54,288 nt of DNA from a virus (lineage: Duplodnaviria; Heunggongvirae; Uroviricota; Caudoviricetes). Of this stretch, positions 1-54,288 are shown in pieces (positions within the stretch are counted from its first letter, which is position 1; every line of letters starts with the position of its first letter). The position numbers and the translations under genes were made by a program. The notes beneath the pieces are model-generated. The model had not been told where the DNA came from. It made no database searches and saw only the letters and a program-made list of their open reading frames with translations. The DNA lies in the IMG/VR virus record IMGVR_UViG_2585427966_000002; one strand, 5' to 3'.

Positions 1-219
1 CTACGATAACCGCGCATTCAACATGGCTATCTGTTCGTCGTTCATGTCATCAATCCACATACCGTAAATTTCATACACCATCTGCGCAGTTTCATGCCCC
101 ATTTGGCTGGCTATAAATGCCGGGTTCGCTCCTGCCGTCAACAGCCAGCAGGCAAAAGTATGCCGCGTATGGTACGGATTACGGCGGCGAATACCAGCAC
201 GTTTTACTGCTGCATTCCA
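1..219. repeat. Left copy of ~219-bp direct repeat (integrase 3' end), about 3 mismatches to 52202-52420
   Basis: Aligned by eye to 52202-52420; differences at about positions 30, 103, 163, then divergence after 219. Confidence 0.8.
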
Positions 220-1236
220 CCTTGCCCCCAAACTGCTTACCGAGTAATAAGGTTTTTGTTTTCCGTTACACACCCTGGGCATGAAAACAAAATGCAGTTT
301 TTGCTTTTCGGTTCTGCCGTACTCCCGATGATAAAAGGTGATTTCGCTTTTGCGATGATGCCCGGTCAGTTTGTATTGCTCCTTCAGTGCTTCAAGAGCA
401 GGCTGCAGTAGTGTTACTGTTCGGATCCCGGCATTTGTTTTTGGGGGACCGAACATATCAAGTATCGTCAGGTTTCTTCTGACATTCACTATTCCCTTTT
501 CGAGATCCACATCCTCCCACGCCAGAGCTGCCAGTTCCCCGTGACGAAGTCCTGAGTAAACGGCAAATTTCCACAAGTTCTGGCTCTGTCCTTTTTCACT
601 TTCCATTAATGCATTGAATTCTGTTTTAGATAACGGATCAGGCTTTATTCTGTTTCGCTGTAATTTTTTTACTCCTTCAAATGGTTTGGTTGATATAAAT
701 CCCGACTGATACGCAAAACGCAACAGCGAACAGAGCAGGGCGATATAGTTATCAACTGTGCGCACGGTTCTTCCTTTTTTGTTGGATCTTGGATTATCCA
801 GGTAAAGCGTTTCTCCATGCAGCAGTTCATTCCGGTAGTTTAAGATATCGCTATAACGAATATGTGATATTGGGGTACTTTCACAAATTATTATTCTGAG
901 TGTTTTTAATTGTGATTTCGTTTTCTTCATTGTGTTTGTTGTTAACTCTGTCTCTTTAATTTTTGTCCAGATATCACAAAGCTCTCCGAACGTTTTTATG
1001 ACTCTCGTTGTCACCATTTTTGCCCCAGTGCTGGACTGGGGAAAACGTCTTAAATACTCAAATTCACCGGAGTTTATTTCATGAACTATCAGCGCTCTTA
1101 AATTTCCGGCCTTTTTAATATTACTGTTTGTAATCTCCCAGCCTTTTAATGTTTCCCGACATCGTTTTCCTCGAAACATGAACCAGATGCGAATGTATCT
1201 ACCTCTAATCTCGACACCTGTTGGTAATTTAGACAT
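1..1236 (-). CDS. intR: Tyrosine integrase, Rac prophage IntR-type (411 aa)
   Basis: Full ORF from track; C-terminal catalytic region (HTRHTFACWLL...Y); sequence matches my memory of IntR; followed by xis and recET as in Rac. Window begins at its stop codon. Confidence 0.9.
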   Translation of the reverse strand: MSKLPTGVEIRGRYIRIWFMFRGKRCRETLKGWEITNSNIKKAGNLRALIVHEINSGEFEYLRRFPQSSTGAKMVTTRVIKTFGELCDIWTKIKETELTTNTMKKTKSQLKTLRIIICESTPISHIRYSDILNYRNELLHGETLYLDNPRSNKKGRTVRTVDNYIALLCSLLRFAYQSGFISTKPFEGVKKLQRNRIKPDPLSKTEFNALMESEKGQSQNLWKFAVYSGLRHGELAALAWEDVDLEKGIVNVRRNLTILDMFGPPKTNAGIRTVTLLQPALEALKEQYKLTGHHRKSEITFYHREYGRTEKQKLHFVFMPRVCNGKQKPYYSVSSLGARWNAAVKRAGIRRRNPYHTRHTFACWLLTAGANPAFIASQMGHETAQMVYEIYGMWIDDMNDEQIAMLNARLS

Positions 1237-2794: not shown

Positions 2795-5387
2795 TTGCAT
2801 ATTCCTTAGCCCAGCGGGGCAGTGATAATGTCTTAATAGCTGGCCATTCATCGGTATTCAGGCAGTCAGACAGGGTTCGCAGATTGCGGTGATATTCCTG
2901 TTGACCTGCCAGTTTTGCTTCTTCGCCCATCATGAAAATTTCAACCGGATAACGTCCGCATTCAATAGTTGTGCTGGCAACCAGAAAAACGAAAGTTGGC
3001 TGCACTCCAAACAGTGCTTCATAACCGTCACTGTAGAATGCATCCTGAACGTGATAGCGGTAGTCGTAATAAGCGGTTTTGAATCGTTGAATATCCGCCG
3101 TAGTTTTCACGTCCATGATCCAGTGAAATTCAGGGATAATTTTGTCCGGACGGCACCGACACAAAATTCCTGTTTCAGGATCTTCCCAGTAAATTGATGA
3201 TTCAGCGTGTCCGGCGCTTTCAACAAGCCATTGCCCCAGCGGCAAAGCCATAACGCTTTGATACATGAGTTCAATTTTCCGGCCTTCTTCCGCAGTGATA
3301 ACCGTTTTTCCTGTGCTTGCGCATTCCATCAGAAACGCTTTCTCTTCTTCTTTTCCGGCGTTTGTACGGCGGTTAAATTCAGGTGCTACGATAAAGCGGT
3401 TACTGAATTCTTCCGGTTCAAGTACCCGGCAGTGGAAAGCAGTTCCTAAATCGAGCGTTTTTGTCTTTGTGGTGTCCACGGGGGCATTTTTACGCCACAA
3501 ATATAGTGCCGGAGTATCAGCAATGTCATCGAGCTGAGACTTACTGATACCGGGACCCGCGTGGTAATTCTCATTCGAAATTCCGTAATAAATACCTGGC
3601 TCTATGTCTTCTACGATTACGGGATCTGCGACTTCGCCAGTTTCATCACTGCAATCGTGATGCGGATCGCTGCCAGCATTCTCATTGTGCGGATGTTCAG
3701 CGCCTTCCATTTCCTCCGGATCATTTTCCTTAGCTTCAACCTGACTCTCTTCATCGAATGTTTCCTGGTATGTTGCGTCGCCCATCACCGCACCACAGTC
3801 AGGGCAGTTATCCCCGCCAGTCTGGCCGCAGGCATTGCAGGCTATTTCCGGTTCCTGTTGCACTACTGGCTCAGGTTGATTCATATCTGGGCTGGTTTTT
3901 TCCGTTTCTGGCTGGTTCTGGTACACACAATCGCGAGTCTGGATCCCCTTTACCCATTTCGGATCGTTCGGGTCGCTAATTCCGTCAACAAATTCACCAC
4001 GTGATGCAGCAAGCAATTTATCGGCATCGACAGGATTTTTTGATGGAATGTTTTTCCGGGCTTCATGGAGTTCTGCCCGCAGTTCCTGATATTTCGCATC
4101 AACAGAATTTACCTGTGACTGAGCATCCAGCGGCTGCGTGTCCTGATGATGTTCAGTTGCGTCCGGTTCCATTGTTTCAGCCTCTCCCTGTTCAACTGCC
4201 GTTGTTCCAGATGGTTGCGGTTTTTCTTCATCATCCTGTTTTCCTTCTTCTGTTACTCGCTGCGGCATCGGGGCAGAGGAGCGACCGCAGGCAATATCCA
4301 CGATTTCCGGATCAGGGTTGGCATGATCGGTTTCAGTCAGTACTTTGTTCAGATATTCAGTGACGTGCGCGGGGATGACCTCGATCCCAATTGGTGCTTC
4401 TTTTACGGACGCAACCACGATGGCGCGGGAATAATCCAGCCCGCCAGGCATGGTGATGAATTTGTCGCGGAAAACAGAAAAGGGCGGTTTATTTTCAGCG
4501 ATAATTTCCTCAATGCGTTTAGCGTGTGCCGGATGAAGGTTATAGATGTCCAGATCCATTGAACGGGCCAGTACGCCAGTGGCTACGTCGCGCGCCAGTG
4601 ACGTCAGATCGTGTACGAAACCTTCGCCGCGATCGGTGAGGTTTCCGCCGCCAGCATTAGCACCGGAAGCCGTGCGAGTGATGTGTGAAACACGATTACC
4701 CTTCATCCACTCTTTTGTCAGCAGTCCTCGATCGGTGTAGTCAGCGTTCAGGTATGCTTCGAAAAAAGCAGTTATCAGTCCCAGGTTTGAATTACCAGGA
4801 TTAGGGAAAACTTTGTCAGTGTCACGAACCAGTTTGTGGAGTTCGCGAATTTCCAGCGGGTCGAGCAGGCTGGTTTTGTGGGAAACAGCCAGGGCAGTAA
4901 CAGCCGGTAGTTCTTCAGCCCGAGCAATGTGTAATGCCTGGAGTCCGTCGCGTGAAACGTGCGTTACCGGTTTTTCGCTGCCGTGTTGAGCAAGCCAACG
5001 AATGGGCAGTTCCTGGCCAGAAATTGGGAGTAGCATATTCTCCTCAATCTCAGTCATGTCTTCGCCGTTGACGTTGGTATTGCCTTGATAATGAGCGTTG
5101 TCTGGTGCTGCTCCCGGTTTTAGTTCCCATGTCATGGAGTCTTTGCTGAGTTGATAGCGTTCACTCCAGGTAAAATCGATCTCACCTTCAGCGGGCAGGT
5201 CATTAACGACAGGAAAATTCGTGGCAACAGCTTTAAAATAGCTGCTCAGTTTTTTACCTGACTTAACGATCAGGTAGTCCAGAGTGGCACAGGTCGATTC
5301 AAAATCGTTGCTTGCCCACAGGACGACGTCAGGTTCACCGGATGATTTTTTCGCTTTCCGTAACAGGAAGAGTGGTTTTGTGCTCAT
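2787..5387 (-). CDS. recE: RecE exonuclease VIII (866 aa)
   Basis: 866-aa ORF, the length I recall for RecE; acidic low-complexity middle region and C-terminal nuclease region; recE-recT operon arrangement. Confidence 0.9.
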
Positions 5388-6009: not shown

Positions 6010-6230
6010 CACCATGACTCCGCCTTTACAGGTAAACCATCACAACCGAGGAAGACTTTAATCATGCGGTCAGTAATGCATGTTTTTGTGGTCAGGTTAC
6101 GAATATATAGTTTTCGCTTTTTAATATTGTTTGCCGAGGCAATATATGTCCGGCCTTCATGAAGAACATAATCGCCAGGAGTCACACACTGACGTGGTAT
6201 TTCATCAGTTCCGAAGTGATGTGCAATCAT
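6009..6230 (-). CDS. kilR: KilR cell-division (FtsZ) inhibitor (73 aa)
   Basis: Track ORF 6009-6242 trimmed to [14 protein letters not shown]...; matches remembered KilR. Confidence 0.8.
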
Positions 6231-9796: not shown

Positions 9797-10543
9797 ATGA
9801 AAAATATTGCGACAGGCGATGTTCTTGAACGTATCCGCAGACTGGCCCCGTCACATGTAACCGCGCCATTCAAGACGGTAGCGGAGTGGCGCGAGTGGCA
9901 ACTTTCCGAAGGCCAGAAACGTTGTGAGGAGATCAACCGTCAGAATCGTCAGTTGCGGGTGGAAAAAATTCTGAATCGCTCTGGCATCCAGCCATTGCAC
10001 CGCAAATGCTCGTTTTCGAATTACCAGGTGCAGAACGAAGGGCAGCGATACGCGTTGAGTCAGGCGAAATCCATCGCTGATGAACTGATGACCGGGTGTA
10101 CAAATTTTGCGTTCAGCGGAAAACCTGGTACCGGGAAGAACCACTTAGCGGCAGCTATCGGGAATCGCCTGCTGAAAGACGGTCAGACAGTGATTGTGGT
10201 TACCGTGGCTGATGTTATGAGTGCCCTGCACGCCAGCTATGACGATGGGCAGTCAGGCGAAAAATTTTTGCGGGAACTGTGCGAAGTGGATCTGCTGGTT
10301 CTTGATGAAATTGGCATTCAGCGCGAGACGAAAAACGAGCAGGTGGTACTGCACCAGATTGTTGATCGCCGGACAGCGTCGATGCGCAGCGTGGGGATGC
10401 TGACAAACCTGAACTATGAGGCCATGAAAACATTGCTCGGCGAGCGGATTATGGATCGCATGACCATGAACGGCGGGCGATGGGTGAATTTTAACTGGGA
10501 GAGCTGGCGTCCGAATGTCGTCCAGCCAGGAATTGCGAAGTAA
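9797..10543 (+). CDS. ydaV: DnaC-like helicase loader, AAA+ ATPase (248 aa)
   Basis: Walker [16 protein letters not shown] and Walker B LLVLDEIG visible in the translation. Confidence 0.85.
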
Positions 10544-10565
10544 TTTTTACCGGGAGAAAAATTTA

Positions 10566-11327
10566 ATGGAGACTGTTTTTGACGCACTGAAAGCAATGGG
10601 GAAAGCTACGTCGGTAGAACTGGCTGCGCGACTTGATATCAGTCGTGAAGAAGTGCTGAACGAGCTGTGGGAACTGAAAAAGGCTGGCTTCGTTGATAAA
10701 AGCGTATACACCTGGCGCGTGGCTGATAACAACGTTCAGCAGGAACAGCCAGAGCAGGCAGAACTGCCGGAAGAAACCACCACGGCAACAGTCGCAAAAA
10801 TTTCGGAGTGCGATTTAACTGCGACGATTGAACAACGTGGCCCACAAACGGCGGATGAACTGGCTACGTTTTTCGGCATCACATCACGCAAAGTGGCTTC
10901 AACGCTGGCAATGGCAATCAGTAAAGGTCGTCTGATTCGCGTTAATCAGAACGGTAAATTTCGTTACTGCATGCCGGGCGATAATTTACCAGCAGAGCCG
11001 AAAGCTGCATCGGTAACGGAAACTGATGGTAAAGCCTTTCCTCAACCAGCAGGTGTTGCGTTACCGGGACAGGAAGCTGCAACACAGGAAGATATTAAAA
11101 CAGAAACTGTGGCGGACATTGTGCAGTCGTTGCCATCGTTTACCGAAACGCGAGCGGATGACCTCGTTCTGCCATCGCTGCATATGGCAAACCGCGAACT
11201 GCGTCGGGCGAAAAATCATGTCCAGAAGTGGGAGCGTGTCTGCGCCGCGCTGCGGGAGCTGAACAAGCACCGGGATATTGTTCGACAGATTACTGATTCT
11301 TCTCGCTGTGTTGCATCGGAAAAGTGA
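10566..11327 (+). CDS. ydaW: YdaW-like protein, intact (253 aa; track ORF starts 10515)
   Basis: Start chosen at [12 protein letters not shown] with GGGAGA upstream; N-terminal winged-helix-like region. Confidence 0.6.
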
Positions 11328-11765
11328 TTGCCGGAGGCGCTTATGGCAAAAGTATTTACACCAGAAGAGCGGGAAAAAATTAAAGGGCAGGTTGTTGAAC
11401 TTGTACGTCTGAGCGGTCGCGAGACGTTACGGCAACTGGAAGCCAAGACAGGTGCGACAAGATATCTGATGAGTGTTCTCGCCAGTGAGCTGGTTGCCAG
11501 TGGCGATGTATACAACTCTGGTTACGGGTTATTCCCGTCTGAACAGGCGCGTAAAGACTGGCAAAACGCCCGCAAAAAACTATCGAGGGCAAAGGTGAAG
11601 AAACCTGCTGTAGTTGATCCGGACCTTATCTGGTCATTACCAGACGGAGAAATACGCCGCTATGACAGGCGTCTGAATATAATCTGTCGCGAGTGCCGGA
11701 AGAGCGAAGTCATGCAGCGTGTACTGGCGTTCTATCAGGGTAATTTTCAGGATGTGCTGTTGTGA
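11328..11765 (+). CDS. Hypothetical phage protein (145 aa)
   Basis: Track ORF; start overlaps ydaW stop; a diverged copy of its 3' end recurs at 52561-52690. Confidence 0.5.
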   Translation: MPEALMAKVFTPEEREKIKGQVVELVRLSGRETLRQLEAKTGATRYLMSVLASELVASGDVYNSGYGLFPSEQARKDWQNARKKLSRAKVKKPAVVDPDLIWSLPDGEIRRYDRRLNIICRECRKSEVMQRVLAFYQGNFQDVLL

Positions 11766-45949: not shown

Positions 45950-48331
45950 GTGGATATGGCAGCAGTAAAAATCTCAGGTGTGCTGAAAGATGGTGCGGGA
46001 AAACCAATACAGAACTGCACTATTCAACTGAAGGCAAAGCGTAACAGCACCACGGTACTGGTGAACACGGTGGCCTCTGAAAATCCGGATGAAGCCGGGC
46101 GTTACAGCATGGATGTTGAGTATGGTCAGTACAGCGTCACCCTGCTGGTTGAAGGTTTTCCGCCTTCACATGCCGGGACCATTACCGTCTATGAAGGTTC
46201 CAGACCAGGTACGCTGAATGATTTTCTCGGTGCCATGACGGAAGATGATGTCATGCCGGAGGCATTGCGTCGTTTTGAGGAAATGGTGGAAGAAGCGGCA
46301 CGCAACGCTGAAGCCGCCTCTCAGAGCGCAGCGGCGGCAAAGAAATCCGAAACTGCAACGGCATCATCGAAGAACGCGGCGAAAACCTCAGAAACGAATG
46401 CAGCTAACAGCGCACAGGCGGCAGCGGCCTCGCAGACTGCATCGGCAAACTCCGCAACAGCAGCTAAAAAATCAGAAACCAACGCGAAAAATAGCGAGAC
46501 AGCCGCAAAGACGAGCGAAACCAACGCAAAGTCCAGCCAGACGGCAGCGAAGACCAGCGAAACGAATGCCAAAGCCAGTGAAACTGCGGCAAAAAACAGC
46601 CAGGTTGCAGCAGCCCAAAGCGAGAGCGCGGCAGCCGGTTCTGCGACTTCAGCAGCTGGATCAGCAACTGCTACGGCTAACAGCCAGAAAGCTGCGAAGA
46701 CGAGTGAAACTAACGCAAAGTCCAGCCAGACGGCAGCGAAGACCAGCGAAACGAATGCCAAAGCCAGTGAAACTGCGGCGAAAAGCAGTCAGGATGCAGC
46801 GGCTCAAAGCGAGAGTGCCGCAGCCAGTTCTGCAAGCGCGGCGGCTGCTTCTGCCACTGCATCAGCTAACAGTCAAAAAGCAGCAAAAACCAGTGAAACC
46901 AACGCAAAGGTGAGCGAAACAGCGGCTGCGAACTCAGCGAAAGCATCGGCAGCAAGCCAGACGGCAGCTAAAGCAAGCGAAGATGCAGCCAGAGAGTACG
47001 CAAGCCAGGCTGCGGAGCCGTATAAATATGTCTTACAGCCGCTGCCTGATGTGTGGATACCATTTAACGATTCGCTGGATATGATTACGGGCTTTTCGCC
47101 GTCATATAAAAAAATTGTTATTGGTGACGATGAAATAACGATGCCTGGCGACAAGATTGTTAAGTTTAAACGTGCATCGAAAGCAACCTATATTAACAAA
47201 TCTGGTGTGCTGACAGAGGCTGCCATTGACGAGCCACGATTTGAACGTGATGGCCTGCTTATTGAGGGGCAAAGAACAAACTACATGCTCAATTCGGAAA
47301 GCCCTGCCAGTTGGGGGCGATCTTCAAATATGGATGTGCCCGAAACAGGGACGGATAATTTTGGTTTTACCTATGGAAAGTTTGTCTGCAACGATTCTCT
47401 GATTGGGCAAACCTCAGCCATTAATATGGCATCAATTGCTGCAACAAAGTCAGTTGATGTCTCAGGCGATAATAAACACGTGACAACCTCATGTCGTTTT
47501 AAAACAGAACTGCAGGTAAGGTTGCGTATCCGGTTTGATAAATATGACGGTAGCGCAACAACTTTTCTTGGTGATGCGTATATTGATACACAAACGCTTG
47601 AAATTAATATGACAGGCGGTGCTGCCTCAAGGATTACAGCGAGAGTCAGAAAGGACGAAGCTACCGGATGGATTTTTGCAGAGGCAACAATTCAGGCAAT
47701 TGATGGGGAGCTAAAAATAGGCTCTCAGATACAGTATTCTCCTAAGCAGAGCGGGGCAACCGTATCTGGTGACTATATTTATCTGGCCACCCCACAAGTA
47801 GAAGATGGGCCTTGTGTATCATCTTTTATTATATCAGGAGCGACGGCGGCGACCCGCGCAAGCGATATAGTTACAGTTCCAATTAAGAATAATCTTTATA
47901 ATCTTCCTTTTACGGTTCTTTGTGAGGTACATAAGAACTGGTATAAAACGCCAAATGCAGCGCCACGTGTTTTTGATACCGGCGGTCATCAAACCGGAGC
48001 GGCTATTATTCTTGGCTTCGGTCGTTCAACAGATTACGACGGATTTCCTTATTGCGATATTGGAGGAGCTAACAGACGGGTAAACGAAAACGCATCGCTT
48101 GAAAAAATGGTTATGGGGATGCGTGTAAAGTCAGAGCAGTCTACGTGCTCAGTAAGTAACGGGCATATATCCAGCGAAACAAAAACCACATGGTCCTGTA
48201 TTCAGAACACCGCAATTATCCGTATTGGAGGCCAGACTACAGCCGGGTTACGTCATTTATTTGGTCATGTCAGGAATTTCAGAATATGGCACAAGGCATT
48301 GACTGATGCTCAGGTGGGGGAGTCAATCTAA
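45950..48331 (+). CDS. stfR: Side tail fibre protein (Stf-like N-terminus, Ala-rich repeat shaft), 793 aa
   Basis: N-terminus (VKISGVLKDGAGKPIQNCTIQLKAKRNSTTV...) matches remembered lambda Stf / StfR; internal AAKTSETNAKxSxTAAK repeats. Confidence 0.8.
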   Translation: MDMAAVKISGVLKDGAGKPIQNCTIQLKAKRNSTTVLVNTVASENPDEAGRYSMDVEYGQYSVTLLVEGFPPSHAGTITVYEGSRPGTLNDFLGAMTEDDVMPEALRRFEEMVEEAARNAEAASQSAAAAKKSETATASSKNAAKTSETNAANSAQAAAASQTASANSATAAKKSETNAKNSETAAKTSETNAKSSQTAAKTSETNAKASETAAKNSQVAAAQSESAAAGSATSAAGSATATANSQKAAKTSETNAKSSQTAAKTSETNAKASETAAKSSQDAAAQSESAAASSASAAAASATASANSQKAAKTSETNAKVSETAAANSAKASAASQTAAKASEDAAREYASQAAEPYKYVLQPLPDVWIPFNDSLDMITGFSPSYKKIVIGDDEITMPGDKIVKFKRASKATYINKSGVLTEAAIDEPRFERDGLLIEGQRTNYMLNSESPASWGRSSNMDVPETGTDNFGFTYGKFVCNDSLIGQTSAINMASIAATKSVDVSGDNKHVTTSCRFKTELQVRLRIRFDKYDGSATTFLGDAYIDTQTLEINMTGGAASRITARVRKDEATGWIFAEATIQAIDGELKIGSQIQYSPKQSGATVSGDYIYLATPQVEDGPCVSSFIISGATAATRASDIVTVPIKNNLYNLPFTVLCEVHKNWYKTPNAAPRVFDTGGHQTGAAIILGFGRSTDYDGFPYCDIGGANRRVNENASLEKMVMGMRVKSEQSTCSVSNGHISSETKTTWSCIQNTAIIRIGGQTTAGLRHLFGHVRNFRIWHKALTDAQVGESI
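46320..46960 (+). repeat. Imperfect tandem repeats within stf encoding the Ala/Ser/Thr-rich shaft
   Basis: Units such as AAKTSETNAKSSQTAAKTSETNAKASETAAK recur at least twice (about 46500-46610 and 46690-46800) with shorter variants. Confidence 0.6.
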
Positions 48332-50816: not shown

Positions 50817-51132
50817 AGTGAGACTCTATACGAAATTGGTGTTCATATCATAATGCATCTCAGAAAATAATTTTGATTATTTTTGTGCATGTTTGTATGT
50901 ACACGTTCGAAAATAAACGAATGCGTATGCAACCCCGTAATTTTGGTGAGACCCAAAATCGATTTTGTGAAAAATAGCTTTAACTCGGTTTGTTTTTCGA
51001 GTTCCGGGCGGACTCAAGGAAGAAGAATAGTGTTGCGTGTTATTTTAACCAGATTTCAAGTTGTTTGGTCGTGGAAAAGTGGAGCAAAATGTTGTTAAAG
51101 TGGAAAAATGATAAAAAAGTAAGTTTATTATA

Positions 51133-51366
51133 TTACATTTTACCATTTAAATTTTGGTTGTCTTTAAGAACTGATATCGCTGTTTGTAATAATTCTTTGT
51201 TATCCAGCCATGATTTTTTCTTTATGTTTCCTTCAATGTAATCAAGCAATGTTCTGGTATTGATAGGTCTTCCCTGTTTTGCTACTTCCACTACAGCATC
51301 CCCTAGGATAATTCTTACTTCAGGAAGCTGCGCAGGGAACCACTTTAGGGTGTCTTTTGATTTCAT
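51133..51366 (-). CDS. ynaE: YnaE/YdfK-like protein (77 aa)
   Basis: Track ORF 51133-51399 trimmed to MKSKDTLKWFPAQL; matches remembered YnaE. Confidence 0.65.
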   Translation of the reverse strand: MKSKDTLKWFPAQLPEVRIILGDAVVEVAKQGRPINTRTLLDYIEGNIKKKSWLDNKELLQTAISVLKDNQNLNGKM

Positions 51367-51945
51367 GAAGATATTCCTTAAAATATTATTGATTTTCATT
51401 GCGATATTGTATGTCTGATTCAGGATATGTTGACTTATACATCGGTTTTGTCTGGGTTATTGGATATGCCAATCCCTAATTTTATTAGGGCATGACTAAA
51501 AATGCTGAATATGATAAGGAGAGATGTGATTATCAGTATGCTGTTCATATAGCCTCGAATTAGTAATGTGTTATATATGATATAGTTGACAATTTTTATC
51601 CTGGGTGTTCTTAAAGTTCGTAGATAAACATTGTCGTTTCAGGTATACAGGAATGCTAACAGGTGGCAGCAAAAATCAGGCGGTTTATGGCGCAAGCTGA
51701 AGCGGCAACTGCAAACTATCTTATGCAGAGACTCTACACGGATTGGGTTTAAAAGTATACATAGATAACAGTTTTTATCTGAAGAAGAAAAATATCAAGG
51801 TGATATAGCCTATATGCCTATGATGCGGAGGAATGAATGTGATGGGAGTGATGTATCTGAATAGTTGAAAAACCGCAGTCACGTCGTATGCAAGAACGTG
51901 CTGCGGTTGGTTTGACTTTGATTGAGACGTTTTGGAATTTTTTTC

Positions 51946-52000
51946 GGTGGCAAAAATGGGGCAAAACGCTGCAAAAGGGGCAAAAAAGGGGCAAAAAAAG
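51946..52000. repeat. Five short direct repeats with GCAAAA(A) core at 9-11-bp spacing
   Basis: ggtggcaaaaa tggggcaaaa cgctgcaaaa ggggcaaaaaa ggggcaaaaaaa read directly; about 100 bp on the phage side of the ttcA junction. Confidence 0.55.
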
Positions 52001-52096
52001 AGTGGATTATCGTAGCTTATTGTTGTCGCTGATGATATCTAACACATTGAAAAATAAGTAAAATACTTATGAGTCAGAGAGTTGTGATTTTTGCCC

Positions 52097-52150
52097 TTAC
52101 TTGTTCAGGTTGTATTGTTCTTTCTTTGTAATTTGTTGATTTTCTTGCAT
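52097..52150 (-). pseudogene. ttcC: ttcA 5' fragment (17 codons MQENQQITKKEQYNLNK then stop), attachment-site junction
   Basis: My minus-strand translation matches the N-terminus of TtcA as I recall it and then stops; marks the attR crossover region. Confidence 0.55.
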
Positions 52151-52201
52151 TATTTCAGTTCTCTGGTACTAAGTGGGGCATATTGAGGGCAAACTTTGCA
52201 A

Positions 52202-52420
52202 CTACGATAACCGCGCATTCAACATGGCTACCTGTTCGTCGTTCATGTCATCAATCCACATACCGTAAATTTCATACACCATCTGCGCAGTTTCATGCCC
52301 CATCTGGCTGGCTATAAATGCCGGGTTCGCTCCTGCCGTCAACAGCCAGCAGGCAAAAGTATGTCGCGTATGGTACGGATTACGGCGGCGAATACCAGCA
52401 CGTTTTACTGCTGCATTCCA
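52202..52420. repeat. Right copy of the ~219-bp direct repeat (integrase 3' end)
   Basis: Near-identical to 1-219; homology continues with more divergence to about 52470. Confidence 0.8.
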
Positions 52421-52470
52421 TCTCGCTCCCAAATAGTCGTAGTGAAATCTGATGGGAAAGCCTTGCTTAG
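52202..52470 (-). pseudogene. Integrase 3' fragment (last ~80 codons) from a second, decayed Rac-like element
   Basis: Track ORF 52202-52510 translates to ...GARWNAAVKRAGIRRRNPYHTRHTFACWLL...NARLS, almost identical to the IntR C-terminus; upstream part diverges and lacks the N-terminal 300+ codons. Confidence 0.7.
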
Positions 52471-52501
52471 CATGCTGGTGTTGCGCTACCCGTACAGGAT
52501 G

Positions 52502-52690
52502 CGGTAACACAGGAAGAAATTAGAACAGAAACTGTGGCGGACATTGTGCATTCGTTGCCAGGCGGAGAAATAGAACGCTACAACAAGTGCAGAATATAAT
52601 TTTTCGCAAGTGCCAGAATAGCGATATTATGCAGTGTTTTTTAGTTTTCTATCAGGGGATATTTTGTGAAACTTTTCGGTGAATAAAATA
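52502..52690 (+). pseudogene. Fused fragments homologous to ydaW (about 11083-11137) and to the 3' end of the 145-aa ORF (about 11640-11765)
   Basis: By-eye alignment: acaggaagaAattaGaacagaaactgtggcggacattgtgcaTtcgttgcca versus the ydaW sequence; second part about 70% identical to the 11640-11765 region. Confidence 0.5.
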
Positions 52691-53218
52691 ATTCTCTGTA
52701 ATAAATGATGGGTATGGTTGGTGGTTATATTTGCGCATGGAAATATTACATTGGATATGAATGTATTTCAAATGAAAGAACCATGACACCCGAATGGAGT
52801 TAGGGATTCATTACGTATCTAATCTAAAGAATAAGAAAAATACTTAATTCATTGTGGGTGGTGATGATATCTTGATATGTAAAAATGGTTCTCTTAATAA
52901 GATGTAACTAGCTTATTACTTATCCATAGCACAAGAAATGGTCCTGTATCTGCGTTGCCATGAAATAAGATAGGCCTAAATGTAATAAAGAGTTGCATGA
53001 CAAAATTACTAAAGTTCACAATAAAAAAGAATTAAGTTTTTTGTTCAAGTATTTTTTTAGTGTATTGTTTTGAAATGTTCTACGCTGCTCTAACCTTCAG
53101 TCTGAAGAGGGCTTGAATCGTGATGTCAGTTCGATTGACATAATGTTATTAATAATGTTTACGTTTGAATGTGAAATATGCTTAACTATGCCTTGATTGT
53201 TAATCACAGGGACTGACT

Positions 53219-53398
53219 ATGAGAAAAATACTGATGTATTTATGTATTAGCATATGGATTGTTATATCATGCGTGCCTATCATATTAACTAGCGAGTATT
53301 TAACAGAGGCGAGTATAATGGCATTGATGTTTGGTCATGCCAATGCACTATGTATTGGGGTTTTTATTTCTATTATTTATATAGAATGCTGGAGGTAA
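53219..53398 (+). CDS. Hypothetical small membrane protein (59 aa)
   Basis: My reading (MRKILMYLCISIWIVISCVPIIL...); AT-rich region; weak RBS. Confidence 0.25.
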   Translation: MRKILMYLCISIWIVISCVPIILTSEYLTEASIMALMFGHANALCIGVFISIIYIECWR

Positions 53399-53786
53399 AT
53401 AGTGTGAACAGCATTAGTTTGATGATTTTATACTGAACTAAAGGGGGAAAGAGGTAACGAAAAAAGACCTCCACCAGGTACGAATCTGAGGCGGGCAGAT
53501 GGAGGTCGATATCTACACGATTAAATTGATAAGTAAAAGTCCCATCAGGGATTGATTTGTTCGAGTCTAATTTAAAGTAATTTCAACGATTTGGCAGAAT
53601 TTCTTAGAGTTAATGATTTTCAAGTTTTCGATTACCAGGAAAAAGGCTGGGTGCTGATAAAATAGTCATCTGCATTCCTTAAATTGTGTAAGGGTGAAAG
53701 GATAAAGTTCAATTTAAAGGCGGTGCAATATTAGCACCATCTTATATATGTAATGATTGATTTGCCTCTTTATTCTACTGTTGAGA

Positions 53787-54288
53787 TTATTGTTTCCGAA
53801 AATTGATTATTATAAGCGCGAAAAGAAATGCTACAGCAAATAAGAGGACGATTGTCGGCGCTGGGGCTCTATCGAGAAAATATAATAACCATACACCTGA
53901 TATTGTTATTGATATCGTTACGGCGATAAGTAATGCCTTATGAAAGCGATGCGTGATGAGGACAGCAATAGACCCTGGAGCTATTAATAGTATATAGACA
54001 GAATAATTTCGACTGCTTTTAATGTGGCAAAAATGGTAGGCGATACCATGCAGAGTAAACCGTAATGTAATAATGATATCTGTAATCCGCTGACTTGTGC
54101 CTGTTGATAGTCAAGACAAAAATTCCTGAAAAAACGATACCTATAATGGTATCTTTCTTTATGATGCTATTATCTTTCAGATAGCCAGTTGCAATTGCAC
54201 AAGACAGTCCTACAATAAATGCACCAATTCCCAGCGGCATACCTATAATCCAGGCTAGAACTATGCCAGGAAACATTGCGTGGTTCAT
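53787..54288 (-). pseudogene. Membrane protein gene interrupted by an in-frame TAA (at 54019-54021); start at or beyond the window end
   Basis: Track ORF 54019-54288 (89 aa, hydrophobic) continues in the same frame after one stop codon for about 77 more hydrophobic codons to 53787. Confidence 0.4.

Follow-up and report, generated by a model that had tools for sequence, protein, structure and literature searches.

A remnant of a Rac-family prophage between an intact Rac-like prophage and uspF at the ttcA locus of Escherichia coli

The attachment of the Rac prophage at ttcA/ttcC was described by Liu et al. (2015, PMC4632033), who sorted TtcA N-termini by the presence of Rac and called attB ancient. 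According to the same study (Liu et al. 2015, PMC4632033), excision of Rac from K-12 alters four N-terminal residues of TtcA as well as a phenotype related to carbenicillin. CFT073 was listed there as an unexplained exception, because its TtcA N-terminus is of the Rac type although ttcA is free of a Rac-like prophage. We analysed a stretch of 54,288 nucleotides from an IMG/VR virus record (IMGVR_UViG_2585427966_000002), which is called the window here. It carried an intact 52-kb Rac-like prophage, and decayed DNA followed the right end of this prophage. The decayed DNA is a remnant of a Rac-family prophage at ttcA. The attachment core, an integrase fragment at a spacing of 51 bp and genes in the Rac order were present, and the distal att site was absent.

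The locus resembled the attR of K-12 Rac with its ttcC pseudogene (NC_000913.3) in the site at the 5' end of ttcA, the 26-bp core, the right-arm sequence and the 51-nt stub of ttcA. However, the stub in the window had phage-type codons, with a phage-type spacer and then the integrase fragment (int') beyond it, whereas in K-12 the stub had pre-integration codons and was followed by uspF. The remnant that lies beside ttcA in CFT073, Nissle 1917, ATCC 25922, APEC O1 and other strains, where PGAP marks its pieces as pseudogenes, was the same element. The four named strains belong to phylogroup B2. In the window, unlike in these genomes with their functional ttcA next to the remnant, the 52-kb prophage separated ttcA from the remnant. 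The CFT073 exception is explained by the remnant, because CFT073 carries it.

The arrangement was also similar to that of tandem prophages at one att site, such as lambda dilysogens and the PPompW and Stx2 arrays, where related elements lie head to tail with an attP-like junction. However, the distal element was here a 2.2-kb fossil, which had probably decayed before the proximal one arrived and which had lost its own distal att. In addition, lambdoid prophages with sitABCD are found at ttcA in EcPF14 and Z247. They carry sit at the right end by attR, and the fossil ended in a sitD homologue (sitD') in the same orientation. Unlike the intact sitABCD of EcPF14 and Z247, sitD' was frameshifted, showed 61-73% identity at the protein level and was without sitCBA. 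Lambdoid phages with SitD were also present in the phage collection. In a literature search, no paper was found that described the remnant itself, and its pieces are routinely annotated as pseudogenes by PGAP. The fossil is an unremarked example of a well-known type of feature, that is, ordinary prophage archaeology.

The resident prophage and the junction at its right end

The resident prophage began with an intact integrase gene, intR (positions 1-1236, minus strand). This gene encoded 411 aa with Arm-DNA-bind_2 and Phage_integrase domains and was 100% identical to the annotated intR in several E. coli genomes. The left-end genes intR, xisR, rcbA, ralR, recT and recE were 100% identical to annotated Rac genes of several genomes over 2.5 kb. 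The prophage encoded intact int and xis as well as RecE and RecT. The right half of the window matched structural modules of sequenced Rac-like phages, and a pinR-type recombinase gene and a ynaE/ydfK-like ORF were located at the right end. The layout of this end was annotated as tail fibre, tfaR, pinR, ydfK and ynaM in EC28 and as stfR, tfaR, pinR and ynaE in K-12.

A 21-nt periodic repeat with nine copies of a 59-nt unit and a 189-bp tandem duplication at 83% was observed at 46448-46926, just upstream of the tail-fibre/pinR region. It was taken to encode a repeated 7-residue motif, putatively in the side tail fibre gene. The prophage at the ttcA site of EC28 (2696000-2703000) exceeded that of the window in size and had genes for a BCCT transporter and a DUF2254 protein inside the prophage DNA. 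This indicated that the cargo varies among otherwise similar Rac-like prophages.

The right (P) arm of the resident prophage was located at 51947-52100 on the plus strand, up to the att core. Homology to prophage-free genomes began only at 52101. The boundary of the intact prophage is located at 52100/52101, not at the integrase fragment. Repeats of the GGGGCAAAA type were found in this region, and three of the five exact matches in the window fell within one 40-bp stretch of the P arm. Four repeats of this type were present in direct orientation within 50 bp (51947-51996). An inverted copy at 52089-52097 abutted the core, and degenerate copies were seen in the P' spacer on the other side. Across the whole window, GGGGCAAAA was without enrichment (22 against 20 expected), and the local cluster at 51947-51996 alone stood out. 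The repeats of this cluster are plausible candidates for arm-type Int sites. An Rfam scan of 51000-54288 gave a single match, to the Shigella sRNA CssrB, in the right arm of the prophage (51768-51905, plus strand). It was below threshold (27.8 bits, gathering score 76, E = 0.006) and may be due to chance.

The junction was analysed by alignment of K-12 attL, K-12 attR and the window junction, and Z247 and K-12 served as the attL reference loci. The att core of 26 bp (TTGTTCAGGTTGTATTGTTCTTTCTT, 52101-52126) was common to the three sites and was located inside codons 9-17 of ttcA. Left of the core, the window aligned gap-free and with almost no mismatches to the right arm of K-12 Rac beside ttcC. 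Right of the core, K-12 attR ran into the pre-integration codons of ttcA (MSQNQEISKK) and host DNA. In contrast, the window ran into phage-type codons, a phage-type spacer and the 3' end of an integrase gene, as at an attL. Because the Rac right arm and the core were followed by a phage-type left arm, the junction was attP-like, with the structure POP' (51947-52201). Such a junction is what separates two co-oriented tandem prophages.

The ttcA stub was located at 52097-52150 on the minus strand. The reverse complement of this region was ATGCAAGAAAATCAACAAATTACAAAGAAAGAACAATACAACCTGAACAAGTAA, which was translated as MQENQQITKKEQYNLNK and a stop. The 17 codons ran from ATG to AAG at 52100-52150, and the TAA was at 52097-52099. 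An earlier reading, made from the sequence only, had described the first 17 codons of ttcA followed by a stop on this strand, and exactly this was seen. The stub was the counterpart of K-12 ttcC, a 51-bp pseudogene annotated at the equivalent position of the right end of K-12 Rac. Its N-terminus was of the phage type (MQENQQITKK), compared to MSQNQEISKK in ttcC.

Between the ATG of ttcA and the integrase stop, a spacer of 51 bp (52151-52201) was measured, where about 50 bp had been estimated. This fossil P' arm aligned with the attL spacer of K-12 and Z247 and differed from it at three positions, offsets 72, 80 and 85 counted from the start of the core. In both K-12 and Z247, a Rac-type intR (98-99.9% over the stretches compared) was followed by 51 bp and then by ttcA. 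The window does not contain attL, and from these two loci we infer that ttcA is located left of position 1. No genome in the collection matched the window exactly across the junction, and the best of them reached 98% (EC28), or 99.7% where the right arm differed. The attP-like junction and the additional integrase fragment can lead prophage-calling tools astray.

Pieces and extent of the remnant

The first piece beyond the spacer was int' (52202-52433, minus strand), an integrase 3' fragment of 76 codons and a stop that corresponded to aa 336-411. It was the distal copy of a direct repeat, the proximal copy being the last 232 nt of the resident intR. Positions 1-232 and 52202-52433 aligned ungapped with 97.4% identity. 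The sequence-only reading had reported a 219-bp copy with three mismatches. This count was reproduced exactly (copy positions 30, 103 and 163), and the copy extended to 232 bp with six mismatches. Only part of the repeat had been visible to that reading because the window begins at the integrase stop codon. The BLAST E value of 7e-111 indicated that the copy was not due to chance. In Z247, where both junctions were present, the direct repeat was about 333 bp long with 8 mismatches and ran from the core through the end of int'. Direct copies of a repeat of about 333 bp, about 97-98% identical, thus lay on both sides of the prophage.

The int' fragment covered positions 112-165 of the 172 positions of the Pfam Phage_integrase profile (PF00589), which is the last third of the catalytic domain. 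It failed as a functional tyrosine recombinase, with aa 336-411 alone left and the full catalytic, arm-binding and core-binding domains absent. PGAP marked a partial integrase pseudogene at this position in Nissle 1917, CFT073, EcPF14, Z247 and EC28. The DNA upstream of the copy had been read as a different integrase allele. However, the integrase homology stopped at 52433, and from 52446 onward the opposite strand already encoded ydaW sequence. None of the integrases of the window, K-12 (IntR), PHB10 and Fraca aligned with the residues that precede LGARW (VLPHPVRVAQHQHAKQGFPIRFHYDY). In the 102-aa ORF of the minus strand (52202-52510), Rac-type phage integrases matched residues 27-102 only. 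Longer tblastn spans to distant integrases (ORF residues 4-102, about 50%) were not reproduced by multiple alignment.

A scan for a promoter of ttcA in int' or the spacer gave no qualifying sigma-70 consensus site on the minus strand at 52150-52450, and the overall count was an uninformative 9 compared to 6.4 expected. A TTGACG-N17/18-TTTATA arrangement was seen by eye within int'. It falls outside the criteria of the scan.

When 52097-54288 was compared with the remainder of the window by local BLAST, two more phage pieces were identified. They were preceded by a filler of 12 bp (TAGTCGTAGTGA, 52434-52445) with no homology to the prophage on either side, at the point where the first deletion joined int' to ydaW'. 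The ydaW' piece (52446-52560, plus strand) was an internal fragment of a gene of the DUF1627/YdaW family. It was 84.5% identical to 11020-11135 (E = 2e-30), within the gene for a 270-aa DUF1627 protein at 10515-11327, and 82-87% identical to the ydaW genes of Rac-type phages. PGAP marked a DUF1627 pseudogene here. The lygF' piece (52552-52665, plus strand) was a 3' fragment of a DUF977/LygF gene. It showed 74.8% identity to 11634-11747 (E = 1e-13), at the 3' end of the 145-aa ORF (11328-11765, DUF977/LygF), and 73-79% identity to phage LygF genes. The two pieces shared an overlap of 9 bp (TCGTTGCCA), which suggested a deletion at a short direct repeat (microhomology). The earlier reading had placed a ydaW-like piece and the end of the 145-aa ORF in the order and orientation of the intact prophage. 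The analysis agreed with this: as in the intact prophage, int was on the minus strand, and the plus strand carried ydaW and lygF. The plus-strand order of ydaW' and lygF' was also that of phage vB_EcoS-666R9 and of positions 10515-11765.

The next part of the fossil was an AT-rich stretch of about 1.1 kb (52666-53786, about 30-37% GC), for which BLAST gave no homology to the resident prophage. It contained an ORF for 59 hydrophobic residues at 53219-53398, which matched no Pfam family. A hairpin (GACCTCCA...TGGAGGTC) followed by a T run was observed on the minus strand near 53450-53510.

The last fossil piece before uspF was sitD' (53787-54288, minus strand), a frameshifted pseudogene of a sitD-like permease with an ABC-3 domain, of which about 100 bp more were located beyond the window end. 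The 61-73% aa identity to SitD extended over residues 9-273 in three frames, and residues 104-151 were missing. No matches to sitA or sitB were found in this region, and the sitC query found only the same sitD' DNA, more weakly. There was no intact ABC-3 permease frame and no sitABCD operon context. PGAP marked a frameshifted metal ABC transporter permease at the same position. The element had been thought to end at 52690. It was found to be about four times longer, running for about 2.2 kb via the AT-rich stretch and sitD' toward uspF. The interval between ttcA and uspF was about 2.2 kb in Nissle 1917, CFT073 and EC28.

A repeat search in Nissle 1917 gave no second ttcA stub, the fossil's own attR, between the remnant and uspF. 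Host homology to K-12 resumed directly after sitD', 96 bp past the expected start of ttcC. These results indicated the loss by deletion of sitCBA, of about 96 bp of host DNA and of the attR that the fossil once had.

Distribution of the remnant, order of events and route of integration

A survey of 5,426 complete E. coli genomes was conducted. DNA specific to the remnant (52440-53400) was present in 1,050 genomes, which is about a fifth. The contiguous arrangement of ttcA, int' and ydaW', with the remnant directly on ttcA, was found in about 1,022 genomes. In contrast, the junction of Rac right arm, stub and integrase was found in at most 38. In Nissle 1917, the remnant matched the window at 100% from 52101 to 53400 or beyond and was located directly on an intact ttcA with no prophage. 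CFT073 had the same annotated set of pseudogenes. The remnant varied by at most about 1.4% across genomes. The same remnant was found with different prophages in front of it, which carried sitABCD in EcPF14 and Z247 and were of the pinR/ynaE type in EC28 and the window. K-12 was without the remnant, and uspF came directly after ttcC.

The sequence-only reading had proposed a tandem integration of two Rac-like phages in this lineage, after which the distal, older copy decayed in place. Its structural part stood, because a second, decayed Rac-like element with internal deletions was located head to tail at ttcA. The head-to-tail layout and the attP-like junction would fit a tandem dilysogen, and the 97% identity of the integrase 3' ends would also fit. 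However, the proposed history did not agree with the distribution. The identical and already decayed remnant was found without any prophage in about 1,022 genomes, which is not what decay after both arrivals in the same lineage would give. The identities of the remnant pieces to the resident prophage were 97%, 84% and 75%, and the tail of the remnant had no DNA match. ydaW' and lygF' showed 84% and 75%, yet the remnant itself varied by at most about 1.4%, which indicated an allelic difference. The divergence of 16-25% therefore suggested a different donor phage and not decay in place. In addition, the sitD' cargo had no DNA-level counterpart in the resident phage. By these sequence comparisons, the fossil is not a decayed copy of the resident phage, and decay in place in this lineage is very improbable.

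The remnant is very probably the fossil of an older Rac-family prophage at the 5' end of ttcA, and the intact 52-kb phage integrated later at its core. The deletions would predate the 52-kb phage, because the remnant was alone in Nissle 1917 and about 1,022 genomes compared to at most 38 tandem arrangements. The remnant-only genomes could in principle have been derived from tandem ancestors by excision.

On the basis of the anatomy, the homologies, the structure of the att junction and the distribution among genomes, an order of events was reconstructed by parsimony, together with Int-mediated integration and the mechanisms of the deletions. An older Rac-family phage would have integrated into the 5' end of ttcA. 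This prophage would have been cut down by the two visible internal deletions, one of them at the 9-bp microhomology, and a further deletion would have taken away sitCBA together with its attR and some 96 bp of host sequence. What is left consists, in this order, of the ttcA 5' end and spacer supplied by the phage, int', ydaW', lygF', the AT-rich stretch and sitD'. The fossil would then have been fixed in a large E. coli lineage that includes CFT073 and Nissle 1917, where it supplies the N-terminus of TtcA and the upstream DNA. Later, the intact 52-kb phage would have recombined with the 26-bp core that the ttcA 5' end had received from the fossil, in effect an old attL (BOP'). The products would be an attL left of the window and the attP-like POP' junction at 51947-52201.

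The variable sites of the repeat were compared for the route of integration. In the junction copy of the window, 10 of 10 variable sites right of the core were of the remnant type, and the copy at 1-232 had 7 visible sites, all of the Rac type. All variable sites right of the core were also of the remnant type in the junction copy of EcPF14. These results placed the crossover in the window and EcPF14 within offsets 0-72, as expected for Int acting at or near the core. At offset 72 from the core start, the junction copies of Z247 and EC28 had the phage-type A, with the other sites of the remnant type. The window, EcPF14, Nissle 1917 and CFT073 had G at this offset. The base in Z247 and EC28 is either a lineage polymorphism or the trace of a crossover outside the 26-bp core.

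Such a crossover would be consistent with another route of entry, in which the 52-kb phage entered by homologous recombination, through RecA or the phage RecET, between its P' arm with the int 3' end and the fossil copy, and in which the same repeat drives loss. The repeat of about 333 bp at about 97-98% is long enough for this, the prophage encodes RecE and RecT, and the phage-type base of Z247 and EC28 is outside the core. However, the window and EcPF14 had remnant-type bases at all variable sites right of the core, offset 72 is perhaps a mere lineage polymorphism, and the prophage has an intact int and xis. We consider entry by homologous recombination quite unlikely.

For the loss of the prophage, RecA could possibly use the repeat of about 333 bp as a substrate. 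The more direct route to an identical product is through Int/Xis acting at the 26-bp core that both copies share. Excision by Int/Xis at the core or by homologous recombination in the repeat would restore a locus of the Nissle type. Because the first 72 bp do not differ between the two repeat copies, TtcA would be left unaltered by excision. The prediction is that Rac excision should not switch the TtcA N-terminus in strains that bear the remnant, unlike in K-12. The flanking repeat would also provide an Int-independent route to precise loss of the prophage.

Integrase fragments upstream of ttcA in other Enterobacterales

The region upstream of ttcA was searched by tblastn in the 20 closest species representatives of Enterobacterales, including Salmonella, Kluyvera, Mixta, Serratia, Erwinia, Atlantibacter and Rouxiella. 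A C-terminal fragment similar to Rac Int, and no other part of the integrase, was found at most 400 bp upstream of ttcA in 16 of these 20 loci, which were chosen by similarity to the Rac-type TtcA in a search that finds the conserved catalytic motif most easily. The remaining four comprised one full-length integrase (Enterobacter pasteurii) and three loci with none by tblastn. It is conceivable, though we hold it only tentatively and on balance doubt it, that the 5' end of ttcA was repeatedly overwritten by Rac-family phages across Enterobacterales and that the 3' DNA of the integrase was taken over as regulatory sequence of ttcA. If this serial overwriting is true, the window would show the two youngest of at least three layers, and attB itself would be a fossil attL. 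In that case, ttcA would clearly exemplify how phage DNA can repeatedly replace the 5' end and promoter region of a host gene.

An integrase-like sequence was also present in the spacer between ttcC and uspF of K-12, which corresponds to the 'pre-Rac' state. A block of 51 bp (K-12 locus 6091-6141) was 76% identical to codons 343-360 of intR, in the same orientation and with an exact 16-mer. Its Smith-Waterman score was 42, compared to 17 ± 2.2 for 2,000 shuffles with a maximum of 31. The same block was found upstream of ttcA in a Citrobacter sp. with the same layout of ttcA, uspF and ompN (Citrobacter locus about 3869-3920, intR orientation). The block may derive from an older integrase fossil that ttcA has adopted as regulatory DNA. 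It was 90% identical between E. coli and Citrobacter, compared to 62% at the third codon positions of ttcA, and it looks to be under selection. The block contained a palindrome, AAATGT-N4-ACATTT.
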